Shown one piece after another: positions 13,293 to 33,543 of a DNA stretch of 64,000 nt. The notes under the pieces are model-generated. The model was not told where the DNA came from, ran no database searches, and saw only the letters and a list, made by a program, of their open reading frames with translations. The translations under genes were made by a program, and so were the position numbers. This DNA comes from an uncultured delta proteobacterium (lineage in GTDB: Bacteria > Myxococcota_A > Polyangia > Polyangiales > Polyangiaceae), in the NCBI GenBank assembly GCA_963696385.1, contig CAVOKF010000007.1, positions 1 through 64,000 of the forward strand, given 5' to 3'. How positions within the stretch are numbered: the stretch's first letter is position 1; every line of letters starts with the position of its first letter.

Positions 13293-13328
13293 CCACCGAG
13301 GTTGAACCCCGATTGAACACGACAACTG

Positions 13329-15490: not shown

Positions 15491-16378
15491 GTGTGCCGGC
15501 CGCGTCCTTGTACGATCTGTCGTCGATGGTTCCGTCCTGATCCTCGCGTAGGCGAGCGAGCGGCACCGATGCGCTCGGGCGCTTTCGCGTCCACGCCCGG
15601 CCCGGTGCTCGTCTACGGCGCCGAGGATGCACCCGTGGCCCTCCGGGATCGAATCGAAACGATCGCGCGCGCACGTGGCCTCGCTCTGGCCGAGCTCGAC
15701 CTGGCGCTGATCGTCGTCGAGAGCCTTCGCCTGGACGCGGCCCGCGACCGCGCTCGTCTGCGCGCCACCCTTCAGCAGCGCGCCCCGCGTTTGCTCATTC
15801 TCGATCCGCTGGTGCGATTGCATCGGATCGACGAGAACTCGGCGGGCGAGATGAGCGCGCTGCTCGGCGAATTGCGGGCGCTGCAGCGCGAGCACCACGT
15901 CGCCATCGCCCTGGTCCACCACGTGCGCAAGAACGGCTCGCCGCGGGGACAGGACGGTCAGTCGCTGCGGGGCTCCGGCGATCTGCACGCTTGGGGAGAC
16001 AGCAACCTTTACCTGCGCCGACGCGAGGGCCAGATCGCGCTCGCCATCGAACATCGATCCGCGCCGGCCCCGCCGCCGTGCATGCTCGAACTCGCGGACG
16101 GCGCCGACGTGCATCTGCGCGTCGTCGACGGCGGCCCCGTCGAGCGCGACCTGGCGGTCGATACGGCCTACAAGATCGTCGCGCTGCTGTCGGCCGGCCC
16201 CATGAGCCGCGAGGCACTCCGCCAAGCCCTTCACGCTCGCAATGCCACGGTCGGCGAGGCACTGGTCCGACTACGTGCCGAGGGGCGCGTCGTGCGCGCC
16301 GACGGCGGCTTCCGTCTCGCCGCGGGCGTTCCGGTACCCACCCCTATGGGCGAGCGGGAACGGAACGGCCATCTCTGA
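15491..16378 (+). pseudogene. Deletion fusion of a zinc-finger N-terminus to a RecA-like AAA_25 ATPase lacking Walker A
   Basis: CRPRPCTICRRWFRPDPRVGER joined to VLVYGAED...LLILDPLVRLHRIDEN...LVHHVRK...LRGSGDLHAWGD. No GxxxxGKS/T. Confidence 0.7.
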
Positions 16379-17002
16379 ACCGTGCGACACGCAGCGCGGG
16401 GTAGCGCGCCCCAACCCGACCTCGTGCCTCTCCACGACCCCTCGGCGCGCTGCCTCGCGTGAAGGGGCGCCACGCGCGGACCCATGCCCCTCTCGCGGAG
16501 CACCGGCGCTTCCCCCGCGCGTAACGGCAACCGCCGGTCGGCGCAGCGTCCGAAAATCGTCGCATCGTCGTGAGCGCCAACAGCCCGTATACGATGCATC
16601 CGGACACGCTTTGATGACCACGAGGCGATTCAGCGAATCCTGGCCGTTTTCACCGATGCGCAAACTCTTCCTGCTCGGGGCGCTTTCTCTCAGCCGAACA
16701 CTTGGCGACCAGGAGCGCGCCGGGGCTACCGACGGTGGCAACCTTCCACTCAGCGACGATGCGGGTTCGAGAGTTTTCGCTCGGCCGAACCCGGGGCGCG
16801 CGAACGTCGTCTGCCCAACCGACAATGAGTAAGATGGCGTCGACCGTTATGCACGTGTTGAGAAAAAGAACTGCCCACGTCCATCGACAAAGGCGCGAAG
16901 AAATCGTGCGCCTGATTCCACTGTGCAGGCCGCAGCAGAGCGTCGCCACAGCTTCAAAGTCTGTCATTGACGCTCGCGCGGCGGCGCGCTTATCTGCCGG
17001 AG

Positions 17003-18748
17003 GTGGAAGATCCTTTTTCGCTGATTGGGTCAACGATTGACGGGAAGTACCGCGTCGACGCGGCGATTGGCGAGGGAGGGTTCGGCATCGTCTACAGGGG
17101 CTGGCACGAAAAGTTTCGTCATCCGATCGCGATTAAGTGCCTGAAGGTCCCCGCCCACTTCGCGGCGCCGGCAAAGCAAGTATTCTTGGACCGGTTCAAC
17201 GAAGAAGGCAGGACGCTCTTTCGTCTGTCAGAGCATCCAAATATCGTTCGTGTCTTCGATTGTGGAGTCACCGCATCCCTTCACGGCCACGAGCTTCCTT
17301 ATCTGATTCTCGAGTGGCTTGACGGGCAATCGTTAGACGCGTTTACCGCAGAAAAAGTGTGCCGCGAAGGGCGCCCCCATACCGAGCTGGAGATCGTCGA
17401 GTTGATGCGGCCCGCCATCGAGGCTCTTGCCTTCGCGCATGAGCAGGGAGTAATCCACCGAGACATCAAGCCCGACAATTTATTTGTCGTGCAGAGCGCG
17501 GACAATCCGCTGCTGGTGAAGGTCCTTGATTTCGGTATCGCTAAAGTGGTGGAGGATGGCGATACAGAGGCGAGAAAAACGGCCCATTCGACCTTTGTCG
17601 CGTTTTCTCCGAGCTGGGCGGCTCCGGAGCAATTTTACGCGAAGGGCTATGGAGCTACCGGTCGATGGACCGATGTCCATGCCCTTGGGCTGGTATTCGT
17701 ATTTGCGGTCACGGGCCGTTCACCTTTGGAAGGGGACGAATTGATCGAACTCATGCGGTCGGCTCTGGCCGAGCGCCGGCCGACACCGCGGTCGCGCGGC
17801 GCTTGGGTATCGGATGCCTTTGAGCAGCTCGTGGCCAATGCCATCGCTCTTCGCAGCGCAGATCGTTTTCAGGATGCACGTGCATTGTTGAGTGCATTGG
17901 TCGAGTTTAGAGACGCGAACGCTGGCGACTTCGATGCGCGAGTAGCGGGGATCGTCCCCAACGCCCAGGTCAAAAAGCGCGAACCGACCACTCTCTTGCA
18001 ACCTTCCATGCCTACGGTAAATGTGGAGGCTGCGTTGCCGTTGCGGATGGCACAGCCGCTTCAAGGTCAGAGGTTGTCGGCGCCGCTTCGTAGGCGATTT
18101 TGGCGTTGGGACTTTCTCCTAGGGTTGGCAGCGCGAAGTCAAGTCGCCCCGACGACCCGGAACCGACGCTCCGTTTTTGTTGCATGCGGCGTCGCGTTGG
18201 CAGGGATCCTCGTGAGCGCGGGCGTGTTGCTGGGATCCCGCCTCGCAAGGCTTCCACTCGCGGAGCCGACGCCTACGGCGCAGACGGCGGCGGTGGAAGC
18301 GGAACGCCACCCGATCCCAACGCCGCAGCCCGCGGTCGTTGCGACTGTGAACGTGAAGGACCTACCCGGCGCGTCGCAACAAGGCGTTAGATCTCCGGTC
18401 CTCGTTCCCCCAAATTTGAACGACCTGTCGCGGGCTCCGAAGCCGTCCAGCCCCCTCGCGCCGCTCGCCGGTCAGTGTATGACACAGGGTCAGCTGCTTC
18501 AGGTCATCGGTCAGCATAAGGTGGCGATACGACGGCTGTGCTGGGATGGCCATCGAACGGCTCGGCCTGCAGTCGGTATCGCAGTTTCGATGACCGTGGC
18601 TCCGGACGGCACCGCACAAAGCGTGTCCGCGTCTGGCGATGACCCCGAGGTCGCCAAGTGCATCGAGAACGACATACGAAACAACTGGGACTTCGGCAAC
18701 GTCGGCTGCTCACAAAAGGTTAGCATCCCGTTTAGGTTCGTTCGCTAG
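17003..18748 (+). CDS. Membrane Ser/Thr kinase with an AgmX/PglI (TonB-C-like) C-terminal domain
   Basis: Kinase motifs as in the paralogues, TM segment, and VIGQHKVAIRRLCW...TVAPDG...VAKCIE...WDF...VSIPFRF. Confidence 0.9.
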   Translation: MEDPFSLIGSTIDGKYRVDAAIGEGGFGIVYRGWHEKFRHPIAIKCLKVPAHFAAPAKQVFLDRFNEEGRTLFRLSEHPNIVRVFDCGVTASLHGHELPYLILEWLDGQSLDAFTAEKVCREGRPHTELEIVELMRPAIEALAFAHEQGVIHRDIKPDNLFVVQSADNPLLVKVLDFGIAKVVEDGDTEARKTAHSTFVAFSPSWAAPEQFYAKGYGATGRWTDVHALGLVFVFAVTGRSPLEGDELIELMRSALAERRPTPRSRGAWVSDAFEQLVANAIALRSADRFQDARALLSALVEFRDANAGDFDARVAGIVPNAQVKKREPTTLLQPSMPTVNVEAALPLRMAQPLQGQRLSAPLRRRFWRWDFLLGLAARSQVAPTTRNRRSVFVACGVALAGILVSAGVLLGSRLARLPLAEPTPTAQTAAVEAERHPIPTPQPAVVATVNVKDLPGASQQGVRSPVLVPPNLNDLSRAPKPSSPLAPLAGQCMTQGQLLQVIGQHKVAIRRLCWDGHRTARPAVGIAVSMTVAPDGTAQSVSASGDDPEVAKCIENDIRNNWDFGNVGCSQKVSIPFRFVR

Positions 18749-19208
18749 CGACCTTCGGACGTTGCGTCTACGAATGCGCTCAAAAGCGCGCGTGCTGTCG
18801 GTGGAGAGCGCGTGATGTCCGAAAAGCCGTCGGCGCTCTTCACGCAGCCTCGCGACGGTAGAAATTGAGGAGTCCGCCGAGACGCGATCGACACCCGATC
18901 GCGCCAAGCGACGCGTTGTCGTTGCTCGGCGACGGCGTCGGCGAGTAGTAGGCGTCGGTCGACGAAGAGCCGCGGAAGCGGGCGCGGAAACATATCGCGT
19001 CTTCGCTCGTACACGCGTTTTTGCACCTGAAGACCCTGACCTGTAGACGGACTCGGAGTACGGGCACATCAGCGGGTTACACTTCGACCCCGCGGTCCTC
19101 TCCGCTGAAGCCGTCCGGGCGCATTCGTTTCGCGTTTACTGCGTCTCGCCTCTGGTGAACGCGGACAATTCGAGGCTTCGCGCGCTCGCGCTCGGAATGG
19201 CCGCTCGC

Positions 19209-22200
19209 TCACTTCTCGACGACGCGAACCTCACGAGTGAAAAACGAGCGGCTCACGCCCAAGGCTCGCAGGAGCGGTGTGACGTTGAATGCTTGGAAGG
19301 TGATGGTGGACGAGCTTTGGGGCATAACTTTAATGGGCGTGCTCACGCTCATCATGACTATTTCATCCGCTCCCCCCCCAATCACAAGCGTGAGCTCCTC
19401 GCATGAGATCACCTGGCTCACGAGCACCCAATCGGCCTCCCATTTCCTGGCTTCCGCCAGAGCTTTGAGCCGTGCGGCTGCCAGCGCAACGTCGAACGAA
19501 TGCGCGGAGGAGCCGCGCATGTTCAGGAATACAGAGCCGGCTCGAGGGAGCGTCAACTGATTCATTCCAAACGCGATCACGTTGGTACCCTGGCTCCGGA
19601 TGTCGATGTCCGCTGCGCGGGCCACGCTCGTGCCGAGATCGTCGGGCACGCCAAGCTCGGCGAGGCTCGTCAGCTTGAAGAAGATCCCGCCGTCGAGCCT
19701 GCCTACGTCTCCGAGCCGAATCGGAACATTGGGGGGCCACGTCAGCCGGAGCCTGAGCTTGTCATGAATCTCCCGGCCGGCGCGCTGCAGGGCGCGGCTC
19801 GCCGAGCCGGTCCGCCGAACCTGTGGCTTGTCGGCCGTTGCGCGGTTGGGCTTGGGCGCAGCGGAGGGGGAAGGTTTCGGGCTGCTCGGCTGAGGTGTGG
19901 CCCCGGTGCTCGCCGACGTCCTCGAACGGTCGGTGCTCGAGGGCGTGGCGAACGACAGCATGGCATCAGGGCGGGCGAAGGCCACGTAGGAGAGCAACGC
20001 GACTGCGCTCCCGGCTCCCAAATCGTCGCTTGTAGCCCGGCGACGCACCTCGACCACCGCCTCGCCCACGGTGCGGCCCGCCCCGATCGCGTCATAGAAT
20101 GCGCGTGCCGCTGCGACGGCCGCTCGGTCGGTTACGGGCATCGAAGGGGCCACGCCGCCCGGACACCCACGCCCTATCAGCGAGAGAAGCATGCGAGGTC
20201 CCCATATACCGCCCGCGTTGAGGAAGAAGAACGGTGGCTTCTGCGTCGACCCCCACAGGTCCTGCAGGTCCGTGGCGCTCATGACCCCGTCCGCAAAAAG
20301 CACGCCCTCATCATCCGAAGCGTGACCCGCAAAGTGGATGAGCCCCGGCACGTCCTCCCGCAAGAGAGCGCTCAGTTCTGCGCGCGTCGTTACTTGAACG
20401 AACGGCACGTTGGGAAAGCGAGCGCGCACTTCGTCCTCCTCGGTCGCGGCAAGCGGGACGCCGTGTTCACCTCTCGGGCGGACGAACGCTATGCGATCGA
20501 CCGTCAGTCGACTGGAAAAGGCAGCGAGCGCAGGTTCGGGGATCCAGCGCAGGACCGGACGAGCGACTCCCAAGAACTCGCGGTTTTTGTCTAGGTGCCG
20601 GATTCGGAGAAGCTCGAACGGGGCGACAATCTCACTGCCCATAACGGTCAGCGGCTTCCCGCCGGCCGACTCGTTCAACACCGAAATAATGCGCTCCGGC
20701 ATCAACGAAGCGAGGATGTCGCCCCGCCGTTCGACCTCGGAGACGCGCTCCAGATCCTTCTCCGCCGCGAGGAGCTCCTCCAGGAGTAGCCAGGACGCCT
20801 CGATGACGAGGTCCCCTCGCTGGAATCGGAGCCGGAACCCGTCCCTCTGTCGGACCACGACCAGCGCGTCCCCCAGGGCGGGAGCGGAAGGCACGGGACC
20901 CGGAAGAGGCGCGCTGCCCTCGTCCTGGGCGCGTGGCTCCACCGGCGCGGTCGCTACGGCGCTCGCCTCCAGAGGCTCGACGAGCCGACGGTAGTCCCCG
21001 CCGCTCCGCAAGAAGACCTGCGCGGCGACTCGCTCGAGCGGCGGCCCACTTCGTCGCACCGTCCCTGCCCCCCCCGGTATGTCGCCGAGCACAACGCGTA
21101 GCGTCTGGCCGCCCACCGCGTCGTGCGCCGCCATTTTCTTGATCACCTCAATGGCGTCGTAGGTCGACACGCCGTTCAGCAGAAGCGCGCGCAGGTCGTC
21201 GCGTTCCTGTTCGGTGTCGCCGGCGAGATCGAGCTCCGCGTCGCCGGAGTCGTCTTCGCATCGGACGACTTGCAGAAGTCCGCTCATCAGCACCTCAGCT
21301 TCGTGGACGACGCCTGCTTCGGGCAGCATCGCCTGGCGTATCATCCGAATCGCCCATAAGGTCAGCGGCGCCGCCGCCGCCAGCAACGCCCCGAGCTGCC
21401 GAGCGGTCGGCGATACAGTCTCGCGAAACTGCTGGAGACGCTCCGCCGCGCCATGTGGCGGCGCCGATTCATCGACGTCAGCGCTCCGGAACGACTCACT
21501 CGTCCACATAACCCCGGGCACCGATTCGCGGCCGATACCGCCGAGCAGGTGCGCGAACCGAGCCATCGCGCGCGCGTCGAGGGCAAGTACTGGGAAGCGC
21601 ACCCCGACGGGGGCGGTCGAGCCGCGATGCATGGCCGGAAGCGGAGGCTCGTGCGACCACGCGAACCCCGAATTTCCGGTGAATAGCGGCCCCGCCCTCA
21701 GCCTCACGTCTTCCGCACGGCCTAGCGCCGTTCTCCACCACATCGTCCTCGGCAGGGCCTGCACGAGCGCCACCGGGGTCCAGCGGGCCCAGTCGGTGAG
21801 CGTCCTGACGAAGTGGCCCTCGCGCCACCCACGCGCCGTGCAGTCGCTCAGAACGAGCACTAAGCGCCGGCCCGTCGGATTGGAGACGGCCCGGTGCGGC
21901 GCGCGGATCGCGGCACGGTTGCGGGGAGCGAGGCCGGGGCGGAGCGTCGTCTCGCGCTCGGCGCGGAACGACCATGTGCGTACGTCGCGGAACGCCCCGG
22001 ACTGGCGCAGCACCCGCTCCACATCCGCGACCAGACCGCGCCACGGGAGCATCGAAACCCCATCGTCCACGAGCAGCGCGACATCGAGCTGCCGGCGCCA
22101 CGCGCGCAGGGGCACCGGCTCCACGACGTTCTCGCAGGCAATCCGCTCGGCGGTGGCCTCCTCGTCGATCTGCTCCGGGTCCTCGACGGCCACGCGGGGC

Positions 22201-22553
22201 AGCGACCTCTTAAGGGCCGATGTGAGGGCCGCTCGCGCCGGCAGCGGCCGCTCCGCAACGACCGGCACGTCGACCCGGGCCGCGTCCTGGCGGGGACGCC
22301 ACTTCGGCGGCGCTGGCGAGCCGGCAGGCGGAGCTTGGACATCCGCCTCGGGCGGCCGGCTCGAAGGTGGCATCTCCTCGCTCGGCTCGGGCACCGGCTC
22401 GGGGGCCGGAGGAGGAGCTGCATCACTGGACCGCGCGACGCCGGAGATGCGGCTCGCCAGCCAGAGAGCATCGGCGATCTCCTCGGGCGACAGATCGCGC
22501 GTGACCCGGACACGCTCGAGCGCCGAGAGCAGCCGCTCGACCGGTCGGCTCAT
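19209..22553 (-). CDS. SAV_2336-type vWA protein fused to an inactive CHAT domain and a C-terminal gasdermin-like domain
   Basis: EEIADALWLA, IDEEATAERIA, LLVDDGVSMLPW, LVLVLSDC (vWA); IHFAGH...FLNAG (CHAT lacking Cys); C-terminal TWPPNVPIRLGDVG...WVLVSQV...TPLL. The vWA and CHAT calls are firm; the gasdermin call is inference. Confidence 0.8.
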   Translation of the reverse strand: MSRPVERLLSALERVRVTRDLSPEEIADALWLASRISGVARSSDAAPPPAPEPVPEPSEEMPPSSRPPEADVQAPPAGSPAPPKWRPRQDAARVDVPVVAERPLPARAALTSALKRSLPRVAVEDPEQIDEEATAERIACENVVEPVPLRAWRRQLDVALLVDDGVSMLPWRGLVADVERVLRQSGAFRDVRTWSFRAERETTLRPGLAPRNRAAIRAPHRAVSNPTGRRLVLVLSDCTARGWREGHFVRTLTDWARWTPVALVQALPRTMWWRTALGRAEDVRLRAGPLFTGNSGFAWSHEPPLPAMHRGSTAPVGVRFPVLALDARAMARFAHLLGGIGRESVPGVMWTSESFRSADVDESAPPHGAAERLQQFRETVSPTARQLGALLAAAAPLTLWAIRMIRQAMLPEAGVVHEAEVLMSGLLQVVRCEDDSGDAELDLAGDTEQERDDLRALLLNGVSTYDAIEVIKKMAAHDAVGGQTLRVVLGDIPGGAGTVRRSGPPLERVAAQVFLRSGGDYRRLVEPLEASAVATAPVEPRAQDEGSAPLPGPVPSAPALGDALVVVRQRDGFRLRFQRGDLVIEASWLLLEELLAAEKDLERVSEVERRGDILASLMPERIISVLNESAGGKPLTVMGSEIVAPFELLRIRHLDKNREFLGVARPVLRWIPEPALAAFSSRLTVDRIAFVRPRGEHGVPLAATEEDEVRARFPNVPFVQVTTRAELSALLREDVPGLIHFAGHASDDEGVLFADGVMSATDLQDLWGSTQKPPFFFLNAGGIWGPRMLLSLIGRGCPGGVAPSMPVTDRAAVAAARAFYDAIGAGRTVGEAVVEVRRRATSDDLGAGSAVALLSYVAFARPDAMLSFATPSSTDRSRTSASTGATPQPSSPKPSPSAAPKPNRATADKPQVRRTGSASRALQRAGREIHDKLRLRLTWPPNVPIRLGDVGRLDGGIFFKLTSLAELGVPDDLGTSVARAADIDIRSQGTNVIAFGMNQLTLPRAGSVFLNMRGSSAHSFDVALAAARLKALAEARKWEADWVLVSQVISCEELTLVIGGGADEIVMMSVSTPIKVMPQSSSTITFQAFNVTPLLRALGVSRSFFTREVRVVEK

Positions 22554-23569
22554 TGTCCCTTGCCAATCTCCCGGAGCAACTCTCGGACGATGCTCTTCCG
22601 TTCCTCCCCGACGGGTGCACGCTCGCCGCGGATGATGTGGATGGCGCTCAGTAGCTGGTCGGTCGCGACGACCCTCTCGGGGTCCTTGTTGAGGTCTGCG
22701 ATCTGCGCGACGAGCGCGTCGATCTCGTCGGCGAGAGGCTGGCTGACGACCTCGGGAAAGTGGGCTTTGATGATGTCGCGCAGTTGAGTCTCGTCCGGCG
22801 GGTCGATACGGAGTCGCAGGCAGCGGCGCAGGAACGCCGCCGGCAGGTCACGCTCACCGTTGCTTGTGAGCACGACGAACGGGAACACGGTGCACTGGAC
22901 CTGCCCGTTCTTGATCGGCTCGAGATCGTCGCTCCCGCCCTCGACGCCGCTCCTGCGCACGCGCACGGTCTCGTACCGGGCTCGGATCCGGCGCGCTTCG
23001 GAGATCTCGAAGGAACCTTCCTCGAACACGTGGAGCAAATCGTTCGGGAAGTCCACGTCCGCCTTATCAATTTCATCGATGAGGAGCGCCCGCGGTTTGT
23101 CGCTCGGGAGCAGCGCGGTACCGAGCGGGCCCAGGCTCAGGTACTGGGAGAGGATCGTGTCCTCAGGCTCGCTGTGGGCTCCCGCTTCCGCGCCCGCTTC
23201 GTTCGCGGCGTCGGCCTCGCGTCCGGCGCTGGGTGCACGCAGCCGGCCAATCGCGTCGTACTCGTAGAGGCCGGCCCGCACGGTGGAGCGCGACGTGATT
23301 GGCCAGACCAAGACCGGGCCGAGACCGAGCTGCTTGGCGACGGCGTAGATCAGCGACGACTTGCCCGTCCCCGGCTTCCCGGTGACGAGCAGCGGGCGAC
23401 GCAAGTAGAGCGCCGCGTTGACCATCTCGATCTCGTGCGTCGTCGGTCGGAACGTGTCGGCCCGGTGGTCGCGCTGGGCGAAGTTCCGCCAGGGCGGCGG
23501 CGCGGGGAACGGCGGCGGCGTGGCGCTTTCTTCGCCAGGTGCACGGAACAGCTTCCACTCGGTGCTCAT
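22550..23569 (-). CDS. MoxR-family AAA+ ATPase
   Basis: VNAALYLRRPLLVTGKPGTGKSS (Walker A), LLIDEIDKAD (Walker B), TSNGERDLPAAFLRRC. ATGA overlaps on both sides. Confidence 0.95.
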   Translation of the reverse strand: MSTEWKLFRAPGEESATPPPFPAPPPWRNFAQRDHRADTFRPTTHEIEMVNAALYLRRPLLVTGKPGTGKSSLIYAVAKQLGLGPVLVWPITSRSTVRAGLYEYDAIGRLRAPSAGREADAANEAGAEAGAHSEPEDTILSQYLSLGPLGTALLPSDKPRALLIDEIDKADVDFPNDLLHVFEEGSFEISEARRIRARYETVRVRRSGVEGGSDDLEPIKNGQVQCTVFPFVVLTSNGERDLPAAFLRRCLRLRIDPPDETQLRDIIKAHFPEVVSQPLADEIDALVAQIADLNKDPERVVATDQLLSAIHIIRGERAPVGEERKSIVRELLREIGKGQ

Positions 23570-25440
23570 CTTCCTCCTCCGGTGCCCGCGCCCGCGTAGG
23601 GTCCTCCGCTCAGCGCATCGAGCGGATTGTCCCAGAGCAGGGTCAGATGTTTTCCGAGCTCTTCCGGCTTTCTTCGGATCAGGCGGACCCGTTCCGGCAG
23701 GTCTTTGAGGGGACCCTCATTCACCAACTCGCGGACCCGCGCCAGGTCGGTCGGAGGGCACGTCGAACGCACCCAAAGGACGACCGAGACGGTCGCGTCG
23801 AGCAGCGGCCTCAGGATGTCCTCGACCGCGTCCGGGCGCCCGAGCACCGCACACGCGAGGCGCGATTGATCGAGTTCTTCTTCGAACGCCTCTGGGTCGC
23901 CGTTTCTTGCAGAGAACCAGCTTACCTCGCCGGCCGGTAGAGCTCCCTCCCGGTACTCGGAAATGGGGACAGGGTGCAGCTTGCTCACACGGCAGAATTC
24001 GTTCCAGCGCTCCCTCCATTGCTTGTCGAAACGCTTCCTCGTTCGTGAGCGTACGGCGTCGCGCACGAGGACCCGGCCCGCCTTGCCCAGGGGCATGTCG
24101 GTTCTCTTGGTTGGGTGGCGGTACGGCCAGCGATCCACGTCCCAGTCGAGCAGCTCTCGATCGAGGAAGATTTCGATGTGGAGATACGCCTCCTCAGTAT
24201 CCGCCGCCGCCTTCGTGATCTGCTCTCCCACGAGCCGCTCTACGGTTGTTCGGTCGACGTTCTGCCGCACCACCTGCTCCACTCGATCGCGGTAGGCCGC
24301 GAGCCGGAAAGCATCCCCGTCGTCCTCCCTCTCGATGCAGATGTGAACGTGGACGTCCGGGTATCGCCAGATCACGTCATCGAGCTGGCGAACAAGGGCC
24401 GGCTCGTCGCCGAGCTCGGCCCTGACCAACGTGAGGATACCTGTCTCGAGCACCCACCTCTTGAGCCGGTCGCGAGTGGCGTCAGGGACGGAGGGCTGGG
24501 GCTGGTCGTCGATGAGCGAAAGCAGCCAGACGAACTTGACGAGCGGCGGCAACCCGAGCTCGCCCGGATTGGCGGCTTGCGCAGGCACCGGCGCGCGCTC
24601 CAGCGCGCGTGCGACCGAGACGGCCTCGCTCTCAAGCGAGGACAGCGCGGGGTACGTCCAGTCGTCCGGTGCCGATCGGCTGAAGGCGGCGGTGAGGACG
24701 GGCCCACACCCGGGAGGAACCTCCTTGAGGCACTCGACAAGCAGACCGTCGACCGGAAGCGGCAAGGGGGCGGCCGGACGAACGACGGGGTCGACAATCC
24801 GTAGCTTCGTCCCATCGACATCCGCCTTGTACCTGGGCGCTACCACGTCACCGGCGCCGGCGCCCATCGCGCTTATCTGGGCGCGCCCCGCTCCGACTGC
24901 ATCGGCAATGTTCTCTCCGGACGCGACGGCAACGTAGAAGCCTCGGGCAAACGCGATCGCGGCCGCGTCGGTGATGGCTCGGGTCGTTCCGACCGCGGTC
25001 TCGATCGTGTCGACGATCTTGTCTGCGATCTGGTCGGAGTAACACGCGCTCAGCACGACGCAGCGAAGGCTTCCTTTGTTGTGGTCGAGGATGTCATGGA
25101 GCAGCCAATCCGGTAGGTCGAACGCGCTGCCCCTGTCGTCGAGGAGTCGGATGGCCGCGCCTGCCGGTTGCCACACTCCCACCGCCGCGGCCCCCTGATG
25201 TGCGGCCCGCCTCCCGCCGCGCGAGCCATGCGCGGCCAGGTGCAGGATCACGGGCTCATGCTCGCGGAGCAGCTCCTGTATCCTTCCCGCCTGGACCTGA
25301 AAGACGGGCACCAGATCCAAGTCTCGGCGATGCCCCTGCGTGATTGCCTCGCGAATGCCCAGTGCTTCGTTCGTGAAGTCGAGCTCCGGTGAGCCGGACG
25401 GACACGCGGCCAGATAAAGGATGTTAATCGGCTTACCCAC
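23566..25440 (-). CDS. CHAT protease fused to a vWA-MoxR-associated protein (VMAP-C)
   Basis: ILHLAAHG and VVLSACYS dyad; C-terminal IEIFLDRELLDWDVDRW, VLVRD, WRERW, VVLWVR, LPERVRLIR, HLTLLWDNP. Confidence 0.88.
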   Translation of the reverse strand: MGKPINILYLAACPSGSPELDFTNEALGIREAITQGHRRDLDLVPVFQVQAGRIQELLREHEPVILHLAAHGSRGGRRAAHQGAAAVGVWQPAGAAIRLLDDRGSAFDLPDWLLHDILDHNKGSLRCVVLSACYSDQIADKIVDTIETAVGTTRAITDAAAIAFARGFYVAVASGENIADAVGAGRAQISAMGAGAGDVVAPRYKADVDGTKLRIVDPVVRPAAPLPLPVDGLLVECLKEVPPGCGPVLTAAFSRSAPDDWTYPALSSLESEAVSVARALERAPVPAQAANPGELGLPPLVKFVWLLSLIDDQPQPSVPDATRDRLKRWVLETGILTLVRAELGDEPALVRQLDDVIWRYPDVHVHICIEREDDGDAFRLAAYRDRVEQVVRQNVDRTTVERLVGEQITKAAADTEEAYLHIEIFLDRELLDWDVDRWPYRHPTKRTDMPLGKAGRVLVRDAVRSRTRKRFDKQWRERWNEFCRVSKLHPVPISEYREGALPAGEVSWFSARNGDPEAFEEELDQSRLACAVLGRPDAVEDILRPLLDATVSVVLWVRSTCPPTDLARVRELVNEGPLKDLPERVRLIRRKPEELGKHLTLLWDNPLDALSGGPYAGAGTGGGR

Positions 25441-25450
25441 GGCGCTCCCT

Positions 25451-26863
25451 TCAGAGACGTATCGGCCCGTCCTCGATGAACATGTCCTTCAGCGCGGCGC
25501 CCGGCTTGAAACGGTGCACGTCGGCCTGCACCACCGTCCCGTCGTCGGCGAGCACGGCGCGCGCGAACGTCGGCATCTGGCGCCGCCAGTGTGCGGCCTT
25601 CGCTGGGTCAGTAAGATCGGACGCGAACGCGTCCAGCTCAGCGATCGCCTGGTCGTCTTGCGTCTCCGGGCTCAGGATGCGGGTGGGGACGCGCATGATG
25701 TCGGCCCAGGTTCCGGTGTTGAGGTATCTGGCGCCTCCGCCGAGGTCGACGCGCTTGACGAGGTGCGTGTGCCCGTACACCACCGTCGTGCACCCGCGCT
25801 GCGCGCTCTCGCGGGCGGCATCGCAGTACTGCGGAAGCTCCAGATTGAGGTCGAACGCTTCGGCGGCTTCGCCCCAGCGGGCGCGTAGCACCGTGAGCAG
25901 CTTGTCCAGATACACCGCGCGTTGCTCGGGCACGCGCTTGGAACGCAACAGCATGGAGAGCAGATCCAAGCTCGGACCTCGTGAGGCTTCGCGCGCCCGC
26001 CAGGCGCTCGCGTCGCGGACGACCGATTCCGCCAACGCGAGCTGATCGGCGAGCTCCACCTCCGACGGCGACGACTCAATCTCGGCCGCCAGGTCGCGCG
26101 CCGGGACGTTCCATGGAGCCCACGCGCGGAGCCGAGCGGTCACGGCGTCCTTCAGGACCTGAACCATGTCGCGGGAGTTCGGGATCACGCCGGGCCGCAA
26201 CAGAGCCAGGAAAGGCACCACGGTGGCGTCCTCCGGCTTGAGCAGATCCACGAAAGAGAAGTCTCTCTTGAGCGGGTTCATCACATCGATCACCAAACGG
26301 CTCCCCGGCATCGGCGTGAACGCGCCCGCCGGCAAATCCTTGCCACGTGACAGATCGCGCCGCGCGCGCCGGAGTTCCTCGTGGTTGACCCAGTTCCAGT
26401 CGTCGTACCGGTTGCCATGCTCGACGAGGAGCCCGCCGATGCGCAGTGCCTCGTCGTCATAGAGCATCTCGACGCGGCCTGCGCCGAGGCGGTCCAAGAG
26501 AGCATGACGAGGGGCGGGCAGCGACATTTCGACGTCGTGGTTGCCGAGCAGCACCGTCAGCCGAGCTCCGGCGCGAACGTGGGCGGCGAGCGCCGACCAG
26601 ATCGGAGCGGTGCGTGCGAAGATCTGCTCGAGCTTGCGGGCTGCTTCGCGCTCGTCTCGCGTGAAGGCGGTCGCCGGCGTCTCGGCCAGGAAGTCGACCA
26701 CGTCGCCCGCGAGCACGAGGTGCGCGCCGAGAGCGGACCGATGCTGCGCCGTGACCCACGCGATGAACTCGGCGAGGAGCGCCTGCCCCTGGGGGCCGCA
26801 CATCTGGAAGCCGTCGGCGCCGCCAAGGTGGAGGTCGGAGATGACGAAGACCTGCTGCACCAT
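25451..26863 (-). CDS. Calcineurin-like metallophosphoesterase
   Basis: SDLH, GDVVDF, GNHD, EHG, GHTH and YLNTGTW motifs. Confidence 0.92.
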   Translation of the reverse strand: MVQQVFVISDLHLGGADGFQMCGPQGQALLAEFIAWVTAQHRSALGAHLVLAGDVVDFLAETPATAFTRDEREAARKLEQIFARTAPIWSALAAHVRAGARLTVLLGNHDVEMSLPAPRHALLDRLGAGRVEMLYDDEALRIGGLLVEHGNRYDDWNWVNHEELRRARRDLSRGKDLPAGAFTPMPGSRLVIDVMNPLKRDFSFVDLLKPEDATVVPFLALLRPGVIPNSRDMVQVLKDAVTARLRAWAPWNVPARDLAAEIESSPSEVELADQLALAESVVRDASAWRAREASRGPSLDLLSMLLRSKRVPEQRAVYLDKLLTVLRARWGEAAEAFDLNLELPQYCDAARESAQRGCTTVVYGHTHLVKRVDLGGGARYLNTGTWADIMRVPTRILSPETQDDQAIAELDAFASDLTDPAKAAHWRRQMPTFARAVLADDGTVVQADVHRFKPGAALKDMFIEDGPIRL

Positions 26864-26884
26864 GGGACCCCCTCGGTCTGCCCT

Positions 26885-29125
26885 TCACTGGTCGTTGCAT
26901 CGTACATCGATGCGCAGGGTCCACGCATACCACGCCGCCTTCTCGGCAGGGTTGATCCATCGCCGAATGCCACCCCCGCGCCTCTTCGGCGGTGCGATGC
27001 TCGCCGAGATCACGTCCTGTACGGCCGGCTGCTCGAGGCTCCGGAAGTTGATGGGATCCGCGCCCGGCGGCGTGGTGCACGCCACGAGTTTGAGCAGCCA
27101 CCGGCTCACGTCCTGATCGCTGCGCGGAGAGAACTGCAGCGGCGTGAAGCGGTCTAGACCGAGCTGGAGTACATCGCCGGGAGCCAACGTCGGCTCCATG
27201 CCCTCCGGCGGCCACAGGGACACGATGCTGCCCCCGTCCGAGAAGGCGACGAGCCCGATGTGAAGCGGGAGCGAGGTCCACATGAGCACCTTCACCTCCA
27301 CGAGGACCCACTGGCTCGGCGTGACGGTGTAGACGCCGTCGACCGGCGCGAGGGCGGTGATCCCATCGGCTTCGCCCTGGCTCCGGGGTGCCTCACCGTC
27401 GCCGGCGCGAAGCTTCACGGCCAGCGTCGTGCTCAGGGTGTCGTCCTGGCTGCGGCGGTCGCGCGCGCTCAGGTAACGGGACCAGGTCGCGAGCCCGCGG
27501 CCTAGCGCTTGCCCGAGGGTGTGCTCCCTTTCCTCGAGGCCCTCGATGAGCGGCCCGGCGCCTGGCAGGTACGCGATGATTTCGCGGGCGCTGTCGGGGG
27601 AGCGCACCGAGGGCGCGCCGAACAGGTCCATGGCGAGAAGTACCCAGCCATCACGCGCTTCTTTCCAGGATTCCGCGACCTCGCCCGGCCAGACGACGGG
27701 TGGGACCTCCCCCTTCCACGAGCGCACCTCGACGTGGGCGGGCTCTGCCTTCGCGGCCTCACGCACGTTCGTCAGCGTGAAGAACCGGCTCTCGTCGGGT
27801 ACCGCGGCCGCGGCCGCCGACACTCCGTCCGGTACGTCCACGAGGCGGACCGAAATGGGCCTCTCAGAGGTGCTCGGACGCAGGAGGCGCGCGCGAGAAC
27901 GGTCGGCCACAGGCTGCGTCGAGTCCGTGCGACGAGCCGTGCTGGACGTAGCCGTTGCCGAGTCGACCATCGCCTCAACCCAAGGCGCGTCGGCCGTATG
28001 AAAGTCGACCGTCTCCGGCGCGTGCACCGCGATGACGGCTCCCGGTTCGAGGCCGTTGAGCGTCCCCCCATCCACAATCAGCACGCCTGCCGCGCCGACC
28101 CGCACCGAGAACCCAGGTGCGAACGGCCGCCAACCGCCGCCGAAGACCGTCTGCTCCCCTCGGCCTTCGAGCACCGGAAGCTGGGGGGAAAGCCTAAGCT
28201 CCGCGATGCGGGCGACGACGGCGTCGCGAAGTCGCTCGAAGAAGTCCATCCACCGGAGCGTCGCAATTCGCTCGGCCGGGACGCGCTCCAGCTCCTTGAG
28301 CAGGTGAAGAGTCAGCACGCCGTGCGGGACGGTGCGCTGCGAACCGTCCGTGGCCAGGATCACCTGATCGTCTTCCTTCGCCGTCTCGGAGTCCCGACAG
28401 GCAGCCAGCAGCACGAAGTCCCCGCCCGGGTACTGACCCAGGCGGCCGATTCCGGCTCCAACGTGCCGCGTACCGGCGGTCGCCTGCGCGAACGCAGGAT
28501 GGCTCCCCGCGAACGCGTTCCACGTCGACGCCTCGAGCGGTGGCATGGCGACGAATCGCTCCCGAGGCGACCGGTCGGCGTCGCGCGTAACTCCGCCGGA
28601 GTGACAGGTATCGGCGATCACGGTGACCTTGGCCCCCTTGCTCTCCAGCGCACGCAGCAGATCGTGGATCTCCCGATCGAGGATCAGGTTGGCGAGCTCA
28701 CCCGCCATCCGGCCGACGTCCTCCGGCGCGAGCCCGTAGTAACGCTCGGCCCCGCCCGGACCGGTCCGCGTGAGTCGAACGCCGTGGCCGGCGTAAAAGA
28801 TGACGACGTTGTCGCCGGCGAGGACGCGGCCGTCCTTCGCGAGATCGGCGAATGCCGAGCGGACGCTGGCCGCCCTGGCCGGAGCGTAGGCCCCATCCTC
28901 CTTGCGCGAGATCAGGCACGCGACCTGGCCTTCCGGCACCCCGACGCGCTCGACGAGGAATCGGCGGAAAGCTTCCGCGTCGTTCCCACATCCCGCAAGC
29001 TGCTCATCGGGTCTCAACAGCGGGTAGCAGTCGACTCCGATGACGAGCGCATGCCACCGGGCGTTGCGAATCGGGCTTTCGGTCTCGGTGCCGGGCACGA
29101 GCACAACGTATCGGCATCGGACCAC
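26885..29125 (-). CDS. Caspase-family (peptidase C14, meta/orthocaspase-like) protease with a DUF4384-like C-terminus
   Basis: HALVIGVDCYP, LAGCGNDA, FYAGHG, ADTCHSGG, LLAACRDSETAKE, HGVLT; C-terminal GGSIVSLWP...LKLVA. Confidence 0.92.
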   Translation of the reverse strand: MVRCRYVVLVPGTETESPIRNARWHALVIGVDCYPLLRPDEQLAGCGNDAEAFRRFLVERVGVPEGQVACLISRKEDGAYAPARAASVRSAFADLAKDGRVLAGDNVVIFYAGHGVRLTRTGPGGAERYYGLAPEDVGRMAGELANLILDREIHDLLRALESKGAKVTVIADTCHSGGVTRDADRSPRERFVAMPPLEASTWNAFAGSHPAFAQATAGTRHVGAGIGRLGQYPGGDFVLLAACRDSETAKEDDQVILATDGSQRTVPHGVLTLHLLKELERVPAERIATLRWMDFFERLRDAVVARIAELRLSPQLPVLEGRGEQTVFGGGWRPFAPGFSVRVGAAGVLIVDGGTLNGLEPGAVIAVHAPETVDFHTADAPWVEAMVDSATATSSTARRTDSTQPVADRSRARLLRPSTSERPISVRLVDVPDGVSAAAAAVPDESRFFTLTNVREAAKAEPAHVEVRSWKGEVPPVVWPGEVAESWKEARDGWVLLAMDLFGAPSVRSPDSAREIIAYLPGAGPLIEGLEEREHTLGQALGRGLATWSRYLSARDRRSQDDTLSTTLAVKLRAGDGEAPRSQGEADGITALAPVDGVYTVTPSQWVLVEVKVLMWTSLPLHIGLVAFSDGGSIVSLWPPEGMEPTLAPGDVLQLGLDRFTPLQFSPRSDQDVSRWLLKLVACTTPPGADPINFRSLEQPAVQDVISASIAPPKRRGGGIRRWINPAEKAAWYAWTLRIDVRCNDQ

Positions 29126-29202
29126 GACGAATAGTCCCTGTGCCGCACCACGTTGACCGTTTCAACGCCCGCGCGACAGTCGTAAACTGCGGGGGCTCAG
29201 AA

Positions 29203-29565
29203 TCAGAACCATCGGGTGAGGAACGTCCGCCCGATACGCCGAGGTTCAGTGGCGTCTAGCCCTCCTCGCTCCCTGGCTCCAGGAGGCGGCGTCCCGCTGA
29301 TCGCGTTGGCGCCTATGGCGGTGGAGTAAACCAGGAAGCCGTTGAGGATGGCGACGAAGAATCCGGCAACACTCGGATGCGTGATGGCTACGGCCAGGAT
29401 CGACACCGCCTGAGCGACGGCCAGCGCCAACCACTTCGGGTTGTAGTCGAATGCACGCTGGATTCCGCTGCATATCACGTACGTCGCGGTGGTGGCGCCG
29501 CCCAACGTCAGGACACCTTGTATCGTGATCAGATCGTTCGGCGGCCCGCTCATGGCGTCGGTCAT
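29203..29565 (-). CDS. Small multi-pass membrane protein at the head of the caspase cluster
   Basis: About three hydrophobic segments and a basic tail ending RTFLTRWF. Same strand as, and 77 bp upstream of, the caspase ORF. Confidence 0.7.
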   Translation of the reverse strand: MTDAMSGPPNDLITIQGVLTLGGATTATYVICSGIQRAFDYNPKWLALAVAQAVSILAVAITHPSVAGFFVAILNGFLVYSTAIGANAISGTPPPGARERGGLDATEPRRIGRTFLTRWF

Positions 29566-29825
29566 CGGGGCGATTCCTATTCGGGTGCGGGTCCTACACG
29601 TGAGCGGGCCCGAGGCGCCCGGATCGTAGCGCACCGCGCTGAGAATCAACCTAGAAAAGCGCTCTTGCGCGGAGCCAGCGGCGGTGTACCGCTAAGCTCG
29701 CAGCGACCGGCGGTACGCCTTGACCTGCCGCGGCCAAGGCTAAGCTAAGGGAGGCAAAGAATCTCGGAACCGGACAACGCCGGAGGCCGCAGGGCTCCCG
29801 CCTTTGCGTCGCACGTGGCCTCTGG

Positions 29826-29910
29826 TGTAGACAGCCAGAGATTTCCGAGGGAATGTGGCCAGTAAGATCCGAGGCATTTTGGCCAGCAGTTTCCGAGGAA
29901 AGATGGCCAC
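29826..29910 (+). repeat. Probable transposon end: TGT followed by three 24-bp-spaced repeats
   Basis: TGTAGACAG then CCAG-N5-TCCGAGG-N5-TGG starting at 29835, 29859 and 29883. Confidence 0.5.
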
Positions 29911-29939
29911 GGAGAGCGAGCGCTTTGACTGTCGATGCG

Positions 29940-30283
29940 ATCAGTCGTCGCGAGCGAAGAGCTGCGGCAGCGTCGGCGAGGGCGTTGAGATCGGGACCGT
30001 CGCCGAGGACGTACGCGTCCGGTGGGGCACCGTGTTCGAGCGAGCGCGACCACTCGCGGTGAAGAGTACGCACGCGGTGTGGCGGGACGCGCGCCTGGAT
30101 CACGATTTGTCGCAAACTCATACCTTGCTCGAGCAGCCGAAACACGTGAAGCGGCTTCCTGCCCTTCGGTGCGGCGAAAGGCGGCGGCGGTTTTTGCCGG
30201 CGTGGCGAGTTTTCTGGGCCCGGCAAGCCAGGGCGCGGGACGGCGGCCGGGTCGACCGAGGGCGTCGACCTCGGCGAGGGCAA
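29940..30283 (-). pseudogene. Hypothetical HTH-like mobile-element protein, probably degraded
   Basis: VFRLLEQGMSLRQIVIQARVPPHRVRTLHREW within ORF 29651..30283. The ends look out of frame. Confidence 0.4.
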
Positions 30284-30553: not shown

Positions 30554-32433
30554 TCAGTCCCCGATCCCTCGGTCGAGATCCGGACGTACGACAAGTCGGC
30601 CTTTTGGATCGCGGGAGACCACGACCGACTTGCCCCGCATGGTACGTAGCGTGGTCGTGGTCTCGAGCACGCCGAAGCGCGAACCGTCCGAGATCACGGC
30701 GTACGAGGAGCCGCCGGGCGCCGCGTGGATTTGAACACGCCCGCGGAAGCGCTCCGGCAGCCGTCCGACCAAGGTCTGCCCCAAGCGCGCCGCCATTTGC
30801 TCTCCCACCGCCCGCCGCTCTCGTTCGCGTAGCGCGACAAGCCGACTCGGACCGTCCGGCGCGATGCCGAGCTGCCGCAACGTCTCGGCGCGTTCTTGCA
30901 CGGCGTGCCGCAGTTCCGCGCCGAAGCCGTAGGGCGCCAAGGCTGCCCCCTCGACACGATCCAACCACACCGGGCCGAGGTAACGAATCTGGTCGGCGAG
31001 CGACAGCGGCTCCTTGCGAATGAACAGACGATGTTTCGGAGGTGTCGCCCGGTGCCGCGCTTGCAGCTGTTCGAGGAGGTCTGGCGGCAGCGTCCAACCG
31101 CCCGGACCCGCCGGTGTCGCCAGTCCAAGACGCTCGAGTTCGCGCAGACGCCAACGGGCGGCGCGCTCCGTGGCGTCAACGGCTTCGAAATCGTGCGCGT
31201 AGACGCCGCCGCGCGCGCGGGCCACATGGGCGATGTGCCGGTCGACCGGCCGGATGGCACGCTCCGGTTGACTCGTCACGGACACGATGTCGCCAGGACG
31301 GAGGTCCTCGGCGGACCGCGGGTCGAGCTGGACATGGACCGCGTGGCCCGTTGGCGTCTCAATGACGGCGTACAGTCGACCCTTGAGCTCGTCGGACAAA
31401 CCTTTGCGCGCGACACGCCCCGTCACGACGCCGGCGTCCCCGGCGAGGCCAGGCTCGAGCCCCTCCCCTTCGCCCACGATCCGGTATCGGGCCGGGTCGC
31501 CGCGCACGGCGGCGTGAATCGGCTTGCCATCCGGGCTGGAGCGACCACGTGGAAGGCGACACGCGCTCGGCGAGCCGCATCGCCTCGAGGTGTTCCAGCC
31601 GCGCGACCAGGGTCGAGTCGTCGAACCGCCCAGGCCGCTGCCGAGACCGGACCTCGACCCGGTTGTCGACCGCGCGCCGTTCCAACTCGCGATCGAGCGA
31701 CGTGAAGCGCTCTTGGCTGATCTCCCGCGCATAGGCCCGCTGGATATCGAGGTCATGCCGTGGCCCGAGCTCCTCGGTCGCGATCTCCTGTGCGGTCCGG
31801 CGCAAAGCCGTTCGAGATGTACCCGCGGTCGAGCCGGAGCTCGCGACCGCTTCGGTCGACGCCCCGGATCACGAGATGCGCGTGGGGATGATCGGTATCG
31901 AAATGGTTGACGGCCAACCACTCGAGCTTGCGATCGAGATCGCGCTCGATCCGATCCATGAAGCGCCGGACGTACGCGGTGAGATCCAGTTCCGCCGCGT
32001 CTTCCGGGGACAGGATGAACCGAAATTGGTGCCGCTCCCCGGCACGTGGCTGCTCGAAGGTCTCGACCCGAGCCGGCTCGTCGGCCGTGTACGCCACGCC
32101 CTTGGAGCCGTCCTTTTCAACACCGTCACGCTCGATGTACCGCAGATGCAACGCCGCCGCCTTCGCGCCGCCGGCCCCCAGGCGCGCGACGTGCACCTTG
32201 ACGACCGCCCGGCGCGCACTCGCATCCGGTCGCGCCACGGCGACGCGCGAGCGCGCGACTCGCCGCTGCGCCGTGCGGGCGCTCCGCGCCATCTTCGACA
32301 AAAGTGCGCCGCGAAACGAGCTTCTTTCGCCGCGAGGCGCCCGTTTTGGCCCTCGCCCCATCCGAGGCCTGAAAATAGGGAGATCGTCGCGGTCGATCAC
32401 GAATAGCTCCACCTTTTCATGATGGCTTTCCAC
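30554..32433 (-). pseudogene. VirD2-like/DUF3363 (RlxS-type MOBP) relaxase with two frame breaks
   Basis: RRAVVK, HLRYIERDGV, HQFRFILSPED and NHFDTDHPHAHLVIRG (3H motif) in 31753..32433; QEIATEELGPR/ERFTSLDR in 31359..31805; GRVARKGLSDEL and VWLDR...PYGFGAE in 30554..31520. Confidence 0.9.
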
Positions 32434-32960: not shown

Positions 32961-33258
32961 GGCCCTGCGCCGCATCCAACGGTATCGGCTACGCACGCGG
33001 CAGGTTAACGCACCGACGTGCGCACGGGCAGGTGCAGCGCAGCCCTTACCGCCACCGCGTTTGCGGGCAGCGTTTGCCGCGACTTCCCTGCCCGGTGTCC
33101 AACCAGACCGCAGCGGTCTTTTCGTCATGGCTGCGCGCTCGCTGGCCTTCTCGCAGAGGTGTTGTCTGTGCACCAGTCGATCCCGTTCTTCGGCGACAGC
33201 CGGATGCCGTATGCTCAGGGTGGTTCATCGCGGAGCCTTGGATCCCGGGACCGCCCCC

Positions 33259-33543
33259 ATGTCGATCGGTTCCTCCAAGCCCCGTTTCACGGACAAGCAG
33301 GGCCAGTATCCCGCGTTCATTCATACGTACGTCCTGGTGCGCCGTCGACCTCCCGCCGAGGCCGACATGCAGCGCTACTTCGGCGTCACCCCCCCTTCCG
33401 TTCATCGCATGGTCGTGGAACTGGAACCACGCGGACTGATTCGCCGTCTTCACAGACAGCCCAGAAGCATCGCCCTTCTCATTCACGCTGGGGAGATCCC
33501 TTCCCTACGGCCGCACACGATCGAAACGGGTGGGCGCGGATGA
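33259..33543 (+). CDS. Small LexA-N/MarR-like winged-helix regulator
   Basis: FTDKQGQY.AFIHTY...PPAEADMQRYFGVTPPSVHRMVVELE..GLI...PRSI. Confidence 0.8.
   Translation: MSIGSSKPRFTDKQGQYPAFIHTYVLVRRRPPAEADMQRYFGVTPPSVHRMVVELEPRGLIRRLHRQPRSIALLIHAGEIPSLRPHTIETGGRG

Follow-up and report, generated by a model that had tools for sequence, protein, structure and literature searches.

A VMAP ternary system with a predicted gasdermin-like effector domain in an uncultured member of the Polyangiaceae

Analyses of a 64,000-nucleotide stretch of DNA from an uncultured delta proteobacterium (Polyangiaceae; contig CAVOKF010000007.1), referred to here as the window and used for all numbering, indicated that a gene cluster at 19209–29565 joins two systems that were previously described separately, the VMAP ternary systems and the gasdermin-protease systems. 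The interpretation we prefer, to which we assign a probability of about 0.6, is that the cluster encodes a VMAP ternary system with a gasdermin-like effector released by a CHAT protease and a metallophosphoesterase as a probable second effector.

The minus strand carries six co-oriented open reading frames (ORFs) placed head to tail. In 5′ to 3′ order these encode a small membrane protein, delimited from the ORF and its hydrophobic windows (29203–29565; 120 residues from the ATG at 29565, in a frame that is open from a TTG at 29649), a C14 protease (26885–29125; 746 residues), a calcineurin-like metallophosphoesterase (25451–26863; 470 residues), a CHAT-VMAP protein (23566–25440; 624 residues; Pfam CHAT and VMAP-C), a MoxR-type AAA+ ATPase (22550–23569; 339 residues; Pfam AAA_5 and AAA) and a 1114-residue protein with vWA, CHAT-like and gasdermin-like parts (19209–22553; P0001), identified by NCBIfam, Pfam, a profile and a structural model. 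The layout reported in the initial annotation was confirmed by the ORF listing and a check of the junctions: ATGA overlaps of 4 bp lie at 22550–22553 (MoxR/vWA) and 23566–23569 (VMAP/MoxR), and the remaining genes are separated by 10 bp (metallophosphoesterase/CHAT-VMAP), 21 bp (C14/metallophosphoesterase) and 77 bp (membrane-protein gene/C14). The GC content at third codon positions (GC3) was 0.77–0.86 in all six ORFs, above that at first and second positions, which is a coding-type pattern. Scans of the cluster for promoters and terminators gave counts equal to chance, with no terminator-like signal above chance between the six genes.

The last three genes are, as judged from their domains and arrangement, a canonical VMAP ternary system (CHAT-VMAP, MoxR and a SAV_2336-type vWA protein). 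In section 9 of the survey by Kaur et al. (eLife 2020, PMC7159879), such systems, which form vWA-MoxR subsystem 1 there, are defined by the gene order VMAP-MoxR-vWA, the VMAP-C domain and the MoxR motifs WxhapG and PsWRxa. In the window the three genes follow one another 5′ to 3′ in that strict order with the 4-bp overlaps. The VMAP-C domain (23623–24288; residues 385–606) was identified by Pfam PF20028 at E 1.1e-30 (107.7 bits against a cut-off of 27 bits), downstream of a variable middle region at residues ~216–384; word-based searching gave no match to the middle and C-terminal parts of the VMAP protein. MoxR has a Walker A motif (GKPGTGKS, residue 64) and a Walker B motif (LLIDEID, residue 162), its PPWRNF fits the clade motif PsWRxa exactly, and its WKLFRAPG fits WxhapG only with two extra residues. 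It has at least 8000 relatives, which are named MoxR-like ATPase and reach 65% identity at best; the MoxR proteins of filamentous cyanobacteria and Archangium are ~47–50% identical to it. The vWA module (21126–22487; residues 23–476) corresponds to the SAV_2336 N-terminal domain (NCBIfam NF041121, E 3.2e-87, 293 bits against a cut-off of 200 bits). The nearest relatives of the 1114-residue protein have only this vWA part in common with it, at ~30% identity, and carry other C-terminal domains. Together, the VMAP-C domain, the SAV_2336 vWA module, the MoxR motifs, the gene order and the overlaps bore out the earlier assignment of the locus to the VMAP-type MoxR-vWA ternary systems.

The locus thus shares with the VMAP ternary class of Kaur et al. 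the gene order, the VMAP-C domain, the N-terminal motif of the MoxR clade and a SAV_2336-type vWA protein of the kind that carries variable C-terminal effectors. It also shares the presence of one caspase-like domain on the VMAP protein and another, here inactive, on the vWA protein, as well as a calcineurin-type phosphoesterase, which is among the accessory domains listed in that work. It differs in that its terminal effector is a putative gasdermin-like pore-former, whereas pore-formers are absent from the effector classes of section 10; in having a metallophosphoesterase in place of the alpha/beta-hydrolase neighbor; and in the extra C14 protease and small membrane protein upstream.

Two CHAT domains are encoded by the ternary genes, and both scored below the 24-bit Pfam cut-off. 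The CHAT domain of the VMAP protein (24796–25440; residues 1–215) fell narrowly short at 23.6 bits, and the alignment showed an intact His/Cys dyad of H71 and C133, the latter in LSACYS; it is predicted to be active. The second, on the vWA protein (19959–20636; residues ~640–865), scored 22.1 bits and matched the VMAP CHAT by BLASTP at E 1e-6. In a five-domain MAFFT alignment, the catalytic site reads (V/L)V(L/F)(S/N/T)A-C in the VMAP CHAT and in three CHAT domains from other loci. The vWA-borne domain retains the His (H744, in FAGHA) and reads FFFLNA-GGIW at this site; because the Cys is missing from the catalytic position, we classify it as a predicted pseudo-protease. The claim that the locus encodes caspase-clan proteases therefore stood for the VMAP CHAT and the C14 protease, which both have intact dyads, and failed for the vWA-borne CHAT. 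The two Cys codons singled out in the initial annotation both proved to be TGT, at 28604–28606 (C174 of C14) and 25042–25044 (C133 of the VMAP CHAT). Kaur et al. stated that ~70% of effector-position caspases are inactive (section 10) and that a caspase domain on the vWA protein is nearly always accompanied by one on the VMAP protein (section 19); the dead CHAT on the vWA protein and the CHAT on the VMAP protein fit both of these statements.

The last ~195 residues of the vWA protein (19212–19802; residues 918–1114) are predicted from profile and structural model to be a gasdermin-like domain, and hence a putative pore-former. As a single sequence, the last 189–206 residues matched no Pfam family (a chance match at E 0.17) and no PDB sequence (E 1.1). 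When 1.84 billion representatives were searched exhaustively with phmmer, 322 relatives, counted at 50% clustering, passed a limit of E <= 1e-3; eight, the query among them, had E <= 1e-10. Most of the 322 are free-standing proteins of 240–270 residues that are matched from about residue 10. A profile of 75 members had as its best PDB match 7n50_A, a bacterial gasdermin (bGSDM; entry named 'Gasdermin'), at E 9.4e-6; its other PDB matches were leucine-rich-repeat proteins with no stretch that passed alone. The AlphaFold2 model of the fused domain, made with the family alignment, had a predicted local distance difference test (pLDDT) score of 89.7 and a predicted template modeling score of 0.84, with low confidence in its first nine residues (909–917). 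All 12 Foldseek matches at E <= 0.001 were gasdermins, from bacteria, fungi (RCD-1), Trichoplax and mammals. An unbiased structural search agreed with Foldseek and with the sequence profile on a gasdermin-like domain, and together they upheld the earlier suggestion of a gasdermin-like C-terminus.

Between the CHAT-like and gasdermin-like parts lies a linker rich in Ser, Ala, Pro, Thr and Arg (19803–19958; residues 866–917), delimited from its composition, which we propose as the cleavage region. One study contributed four soil-metagenome DNA runs whose contigs, assembled run by run, span this linker (record 2 of run X1, 19620–19971; record 10 of run X2, 19760–20441). The fusion is therefore not a binning artifact, although the assembly may itself derive from these runs, which hence are not independent support. 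One contig of run X1, at a depth of 2.1, joins 22513 to 19904 through 14 other letters and would drop the vWA and CHAT-like parts; as this junction is out of frame by count, it is probably an assembly chimera.

In comparison with the bGSDM-protease systems (Johnson et al., 10.1101/2021.06.07.447441; structures 7N50, 7N51, 7N52, 8SL0 and 9A84), the locus has in common the fold of the gasdermin N-terminal domain and a caspase-like protease (C14 or CHAT) in cis, here CHAT-VMAP and C14. The free-standing relatives have, in addition, the flexible loop, the short C-terminal peptide and the immediately downstream CHAT gene of those systems. The fused domain differs from bGSDMs in being the C-terminal module of a 1114-residue protein without a C-terminal inhibitory peptide. 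It also differs in having neither a free N-terminus nor an N-terminal Cys for palmitoylation, a residue conserved in most, though not all, bGSDMs; a Cys within the first eight residues was found in only 3 of 74 relatives, and the fused domain is internal. It is unrecognized by the PADLOC bGSDM model, any activating cut would fall N-terminal rather than C-terminal to the domain, and the protease is tied to a MoxR-vWA pair rather than to NACHT, TPR or WD40 sensors. The bGSDM fused to a C-terminal LysM-like domain that was described in 2026 (PMC13475620) is a different arrangement.

In the family alignment, P0001 stops a median of 25 residues (range 6–64) before the C-termini of 74 free-standing members. 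The fused domain lacks the short C-terminal autoinhibitory peptide and loop, both of which the free-standing relatives have. We scored the 150 listed relatives with a family hidden Markov model (HMM), defining fused members by an N-terminal extension of >60 residues and tail-less members as those ending >=16 model positions short. The tail was missing in 8 of 10 fused and 11 of 140 free-standing members (Fisher p 6e-7, from a test that counts related sequences as independent and so overstates the effect). One of the ten fused members, P0116, retains extra C-terminal residues, and the value for another, P0096, is unreliable. For a free-standing relative from genome G162, the tail was modeled (pLDDT 86.7) as a loop of low confidence (204–213) and then a short strand (220–224), a predicted arrangement that matches the cleavage loop and inhibitory peptide reported for bGSDMs in the preprint of Johnson et al. 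These data suggest that in this branch N-terminal fusion accompanies loss of the C-terminal tail, as a second way of silencing a gasdermin.

The exact 1114-residue protein is a singleton. In a strict first look it was absent from 60 related genomes, the only other match being in G002 (E 5e-4, residues 14–96 only), and a search of genome contigs with it found no relative. A second SAV_2336 vWA protein ending in a gasdermin-like domain is P0096 (1323 residues), from a 4-kb contig. The domain also ends trypsin-AAA_35-SLOG, SLOG-GAF, nSTAND1 and Metallophos-STAND proteins. One of these, P0116 (1183 residues, from a Polyangiaceae metagenome-assembled genome, named AAA family ATPase at its source), carries Metallophos and a STAND ATPase and ends in a gasdermin-like domain, and thereby unites the two effector types of the window in one polypeptide.

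Six of the 301 genomes of the phylum that were sampled had a family match, a count that includes the genome of the window itself and one marginal match. In three of the four loci that were fetched (G162 and G172, of the same genus, and G117), a free-standing gasdermin-like gene is directly followed by a CHAT gene, and a MoxR homologue accompanies the pair in each; the fourth, G203, yielded no protease with the queries used. In G162 and G172 the genes for the MoxR homologue and for a large membrane protein without an assigned family come after the CHAT gene, and these four genes may represent an undescribed MoxR-centered gasdermin system. The set (L010 in G162:C1, 9726–17732; L011 in G172:C15) encodes a gasdermin-like protein of 234 residues, a CHAT protein of 779 or 819 residues, a MoxR-like protein of 300 residues and a protein of 1331 residues with predicted membrane segments and no family match. 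Within the order of G162, 3 of 31 genomes matched, all of them already known, and no further gasdermin-like loci were found.

In G117 (L012/L067, contig C7) the gasdermin-like gene is followed by a CHAT-EAD5 gene and then by a NACHT-FGS gene, and a pair made up of a MoxR gene (its product 44% identical to the MoxR of the window) and a SAV_2336 vWA-FGS gene lies within 10 kb and converges on this set. The ORF upstream of that MoxR gene has a sub-threshold EAD5 match (E 0.05). This hints that an adaptor couples the ternary system to the protease-gasdermin pair. With regard to conserved neighborhoods, for which the initial annotation had called, the gasdermin-like/CHAT/MoxR linkage thus recurred in three other genomes, and the full six-gene set was not recovered.

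The metallophosphoesterase (Pfam Metallophos, E 3.3e-6), whose gene lies 10 bp upstream of CHAT-VMAP, holds the place where caspase-type VMAP systems normally have an alpha/beta-hydrolase gene. Among 301 genomes of the phylum, 31 had homologues of it. We examined 12 homologue loci, and in 7 of them the direct neighbor on the same strand is a protease gene: CHAT in five (L039, L040, L042, L043 and L045, four of them with the metallophosphoesterase first and CHAT second, as in the window) and trypsin in two (L037 and L038, one of which reads metallophosphoesterase, trypsin, MoxR, FGS protein). The introduction of a 2025 preprint (PMC12642450) lists metallophosphoesterases, as yet uncharacterized, among protease-associated effectors, and the preprint shows alpha/beta-hydrolase, MBL, Pepco and EACC1 partners to be latent effectors that cleavage activates. 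The locus shares with these modules an effector gene directly beside a caspase-like protease gene, here metallophosphoesterase and CHAT-VMAP; it differs in that a VMAP protein carries the protease as its N-terminal domain and in that activation of the metallophosphoesterase by cleavage is only predicted. Based on this gene context, the same CHAT probably cuts the metallophosphoesterase as well, which would be a second latent effector.

The C14 protease was identified by Pfam Peptidase_C14 (E 1.5e-13) and by the PADLOC 'caspase' model PDLC02987 (E 6e-22), and its dyad is intact (H114 in YAGHG and C174 in DTCHSG). Its C-terminus is a ~430-residue region of unknown family that resembles, at a score of 0.95, a cluster in which 17% of the members have DUF4384, which we treat as a lead only. 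In the small membrane protein, residues ~43–87 make up two strongly hydrophobic windows, preceded by a weaker one, and the GC3 of its ORF is 0.77. It had no match in Pfam, NCBIfam or PADLOC, to EACC1 or to any other family, and no relative was found. As a further lead only, a language model placed it near phage or holin-like membrane proteins (0.92 for unnamed clusters, 0.87–0.89 for holin families).

The initial annotation had treated all six genes as one unit; the conserved context lends no support to the inclusion of the C14 and small membrane-protein genes, whose membership in the system, judged from sequence, is uncertain. These two genes may form a protease module that is either accessory to the system or independent of it. 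A substantial minority of our confidence accordingly lies with two or three independent neighboring modules, in which the core would consist of the metallophosphoesterase, CHAT-VMAP, MoxR and vWA-pseudoCHAT-gasdermin genes, and the membrane protein and C14 would form a separate pair of the EACC1-caspase-like type. C14 homologues, present in 14 of 301 genomes, have only the protease domain in common; six of their loci had no metallophosphoesterase or gasdermin-like neighbor; and a C14 of this type was found in 0 of 12 metallophosphoesterase loci. The widest gap, of 77 bp, sets the membrane-protein gene off from C14, the gap from C14 to the metallophosphoesterase being 21 bp, and a small membrane-active protein upstream of a protease of the caspase-like kind is a known module (EACC1; PMC12642450). 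Against such a division, the six genes are co-oriented with short gaps and without a terminator-like signal above chance between them, and the small protein matches neither EACC1 nor another family. In addition, the accession of the PADLOC 'caspase' model adjoins that of the PADLOC bGSDM model, which we take, as an indirect hint, to mark a gasdermin-associated protease type.

For the VMAP ternary system with a CHAT-released effector, which we continue to prefer, the following sequence of events can be proposed. The variable middle region of the VMAP protein would sense the invader, and the MoxR ATPase would remodel or assemble the vWA protein. The VMAP CHAT would be brought beside the vWA protein, possibly through pairing with the pseudo-CHAT, and would cut the Ser/Pro-rich linker (residues 866–917). 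The gasdermin-like domain, freed of its 900-residue N-terminal tether, would then oligomerize in the inner membrane and kill the cell (abortive infection), and the metallophosphoesterase would be cut by the same CHAT as a second latent effector. All of these steps, proteolytic release of the putative pore-former included, are inferred.

Several findings weigh against this reading, in addition to the reservations about tail loss given above. P0001 had no match to the PADLOC bGSDM model, which matched only 1 of 38 relatives, and Pfam families matched 0 of 75; by sequence the family is a distant branch, and its ability to form pores is an assumption. According to Kaur et al., inactive domains are frequent at the effector position of these systems, and the gasdermin-like domain could, by analogy, be non-lytic. 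The models of the fused domain and of the free-standing relative both best matched the pore/oligomer conformation and are therefore silent on whether the fused domain is primed; that conformation was considered as a sign of a pre-activated domain and rejected, as the free-standing relative was modeled in the same one. In G162 and G172, VMAP-C was not detected in the CHAT protein and vWA was not detected in the large downstream protein (hhalign of the SAV_2336 vWA profile with the 1331-residue protein of G162 gave a non-significant E of 0.14); these loci therefore link gasdermin, CHAT and MoxR, not VMAP specifically. Caspase-type VMAP proteins are said by Kaur et al. 'always' to have an alpha/beta-hydrolase neighbor, a feature of this subtype and not of the VMAP class, and a scan of the six genes and of flanking ORFs turned up no such hydrolase family. 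No cleavage, toxicity or phage phenotype is known for the locus or, in the literature consulted, for any VMAP system, and either protease, CHAT or C14, may cut a given substrate.

An activation without cleavage is also conceivable, and we consider it unlikely. The domain would stay attached, MoxR-driven oligomerization of the vWA protein would cluster the domains into the membrane, and the proteases would act elsewhere, e.g., on the metallophosphoesterase. In its favor, the inhibitory tail is already missing from the fused domain, the CHAT on the vWA protein is predicted to be inactive, multimeric assemblies were emphasized for these systems by Kaur et al., and some gasdermins act without cleavage (RCD-1 and that of Trichoplax; see PMC13475620). 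A ring would, however, need to fit an N-terminal load of 900 residues per protomer. The ~50-residue low-complexity linker right before the domain and two predicted active caspase-like proteases in cis argue for cleavage, as does the pairing of the free-standing relatives with CHAT proteases.

The surroundings of the cluster suggest an integrated mobile element. A tyrosine integrase gene (38005–39183, plus strand; Pfam Phage_integrase, E 1.3e-27) abuts a tRNA-Ala gene (39206–39279, minus strand; ARAGORN), and the cluster probably sits in an integrated element of which these two genes mark one end; the rest of the window contains no second copy of >=14 nt of the tRNA-Ala region, leaving the other end undefined. 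Upstream of the six genes lie a helix-turn-helix gene (29651–30283) and an ORF with DUF3363, the partner of relaxases (30554–31921), which is overlapped in a different frame by a relaxase nuclease domain (31753–32433). The two ORFs are probably what is left of a relaxase with a frameshift, from a mobilizable element that has decayed. The genes for an ankyrin-repeat protein (33018–35219) and an FGE-sulfatase (FGS-type) domain protein (36039–37523) lie between the cluster and the integrase; FGS domains are described by Kaur et al. as typical variable modules of conflict systems. The initial annotation had described the neighboring genes as decaying, which may hold for the relaxase/DUF3363 pair, split over frames, and for an AAA_25 ORF (15491–16378), which matches profile positions 66–194 only.

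Three Ser/Thr kinase genes lie in 10184–18748 on one flank of the cluster, and a 1316-residue kinase-GAF-sigma54-activator fusion lies beyond the tRNA gene, in 39599–43549. Just past the stop codon of the vWA-gasdermin gene, at 18900–19060, the summed contig depth was 43–84 in comparison with ~4 over the genes, in all four metagenome runs, and many metagenome contigs end at 18942–19004. This segment looks like a short repeated or widely shared element. The public runs listed as containing the sequence include no RNA run.

A role in developmental or kin-directed programmed cell death of a social soil bacterium, instead of anti-phage defense, appears quite improbable. VMAP systems are strongly tied to multicellular bacteria (Table 1 in section 9 of Kaur et al.), and Ser/Thr kinases and sigma-54 activators abound in the flanks. 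Against this, the cluster lies beside integrase, tRNA and relaxase remnants, and its presence in 0 of 60 related genomes in the strict first look is the pattern of a mobile, accessory defense island and not of a core developmental set. Most improbable of the alternatives is a non-lytic gasdermin-like domain (decoy, membrane anchor or dominant-negative) with the metallophosphoesterase as the true effector, e.g., in hydrolysis of nucleotide signals or nucleic acids: inactive domains are widespread at this position (Kaur et al.), the family is too divergent for bGSDM HMMs and the N-terminal Cys is found in only 3 of 74 relatives, but the fold is complete and predicted with high confidence, the family is kept as free-standing genes beside proteases like true bGSDMs, and the same domain stands C-terminally on STAND, SLOG and trypsin proteins, the typical position of an effector.

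No description of a gasdermin combined with MoxR, vWA or VMAP systems was found in the literature, with subscription papers mostly outside the scope of the search and the architecture tables of Kaur et al. 2020 not covered by it. The word 'gasdermin' occurs zero times in Kaur et al. 2020 (PMC7159879) and in Kaur et al. 2021. Literature co-mention of 'bacterial gasdermin' and 'MoxR' came down to a single paper, with gasdermin in its reference list only, and searches of the literature for a gasdermin with vWA, with an effector-associated domain, or with a ternary system plus AAA+, returned nothing relevant.

The metazoan inflammasome follows the logic of sensor, caspase and gasdermin, and cFLIP is a pseudo-caspase of the kind relevant here. 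Tentatively, and with the odds against it, we speculate that VMAP ternary systems could be bacterial 'pyroptosomes', in which a MoxR-gated sensor protease would dock on the vWA pseudo-caspase (cFLIP-like) and free an N-terminally tethered gasdermin. In this branch of the gasdermin family, autoinhibition would have moved from a C-terminal peptide to an N-terminal tether, as in the STAND, SLOG and trypsin fusions, and the metallophosphoesterase would be released in parallel. The inflammasome is an analogy only: both would have a sensor-controlled protease of the caspase family, a dead caspase homologue and a gasdermin executioner. In contrast to the inflammasome, the bacterial components are in one operon, with thresholding by MoxR AAA+ and vWA and a gasdermin fused to the pseudo-caspase scaffold, and no homology of the sensors is implied.

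To our knowledge, VMAP ternary systems are known from comparative genomics only. They are proposed to work through proteolytic release of effectors from the vWA protein, and most such effectors lack an easy read-out. A gasdermin-like effector would give a direct one, in membrane permeabilization and a defined C-terminal fragment, and the locus could therefore serve to test the ternary model. The finding also directs attention to bacterial gasdermin-like proteins that form a branch of considerable size (322 representatives), for the most part unannotated, nearly all of which are missed by current HMMs. The presence of caspase-family proteases, a predicted pseudo-caspase and a gasdermin-like protein in one bacterial operon bears on the origin of pyroptosis-like pathways.

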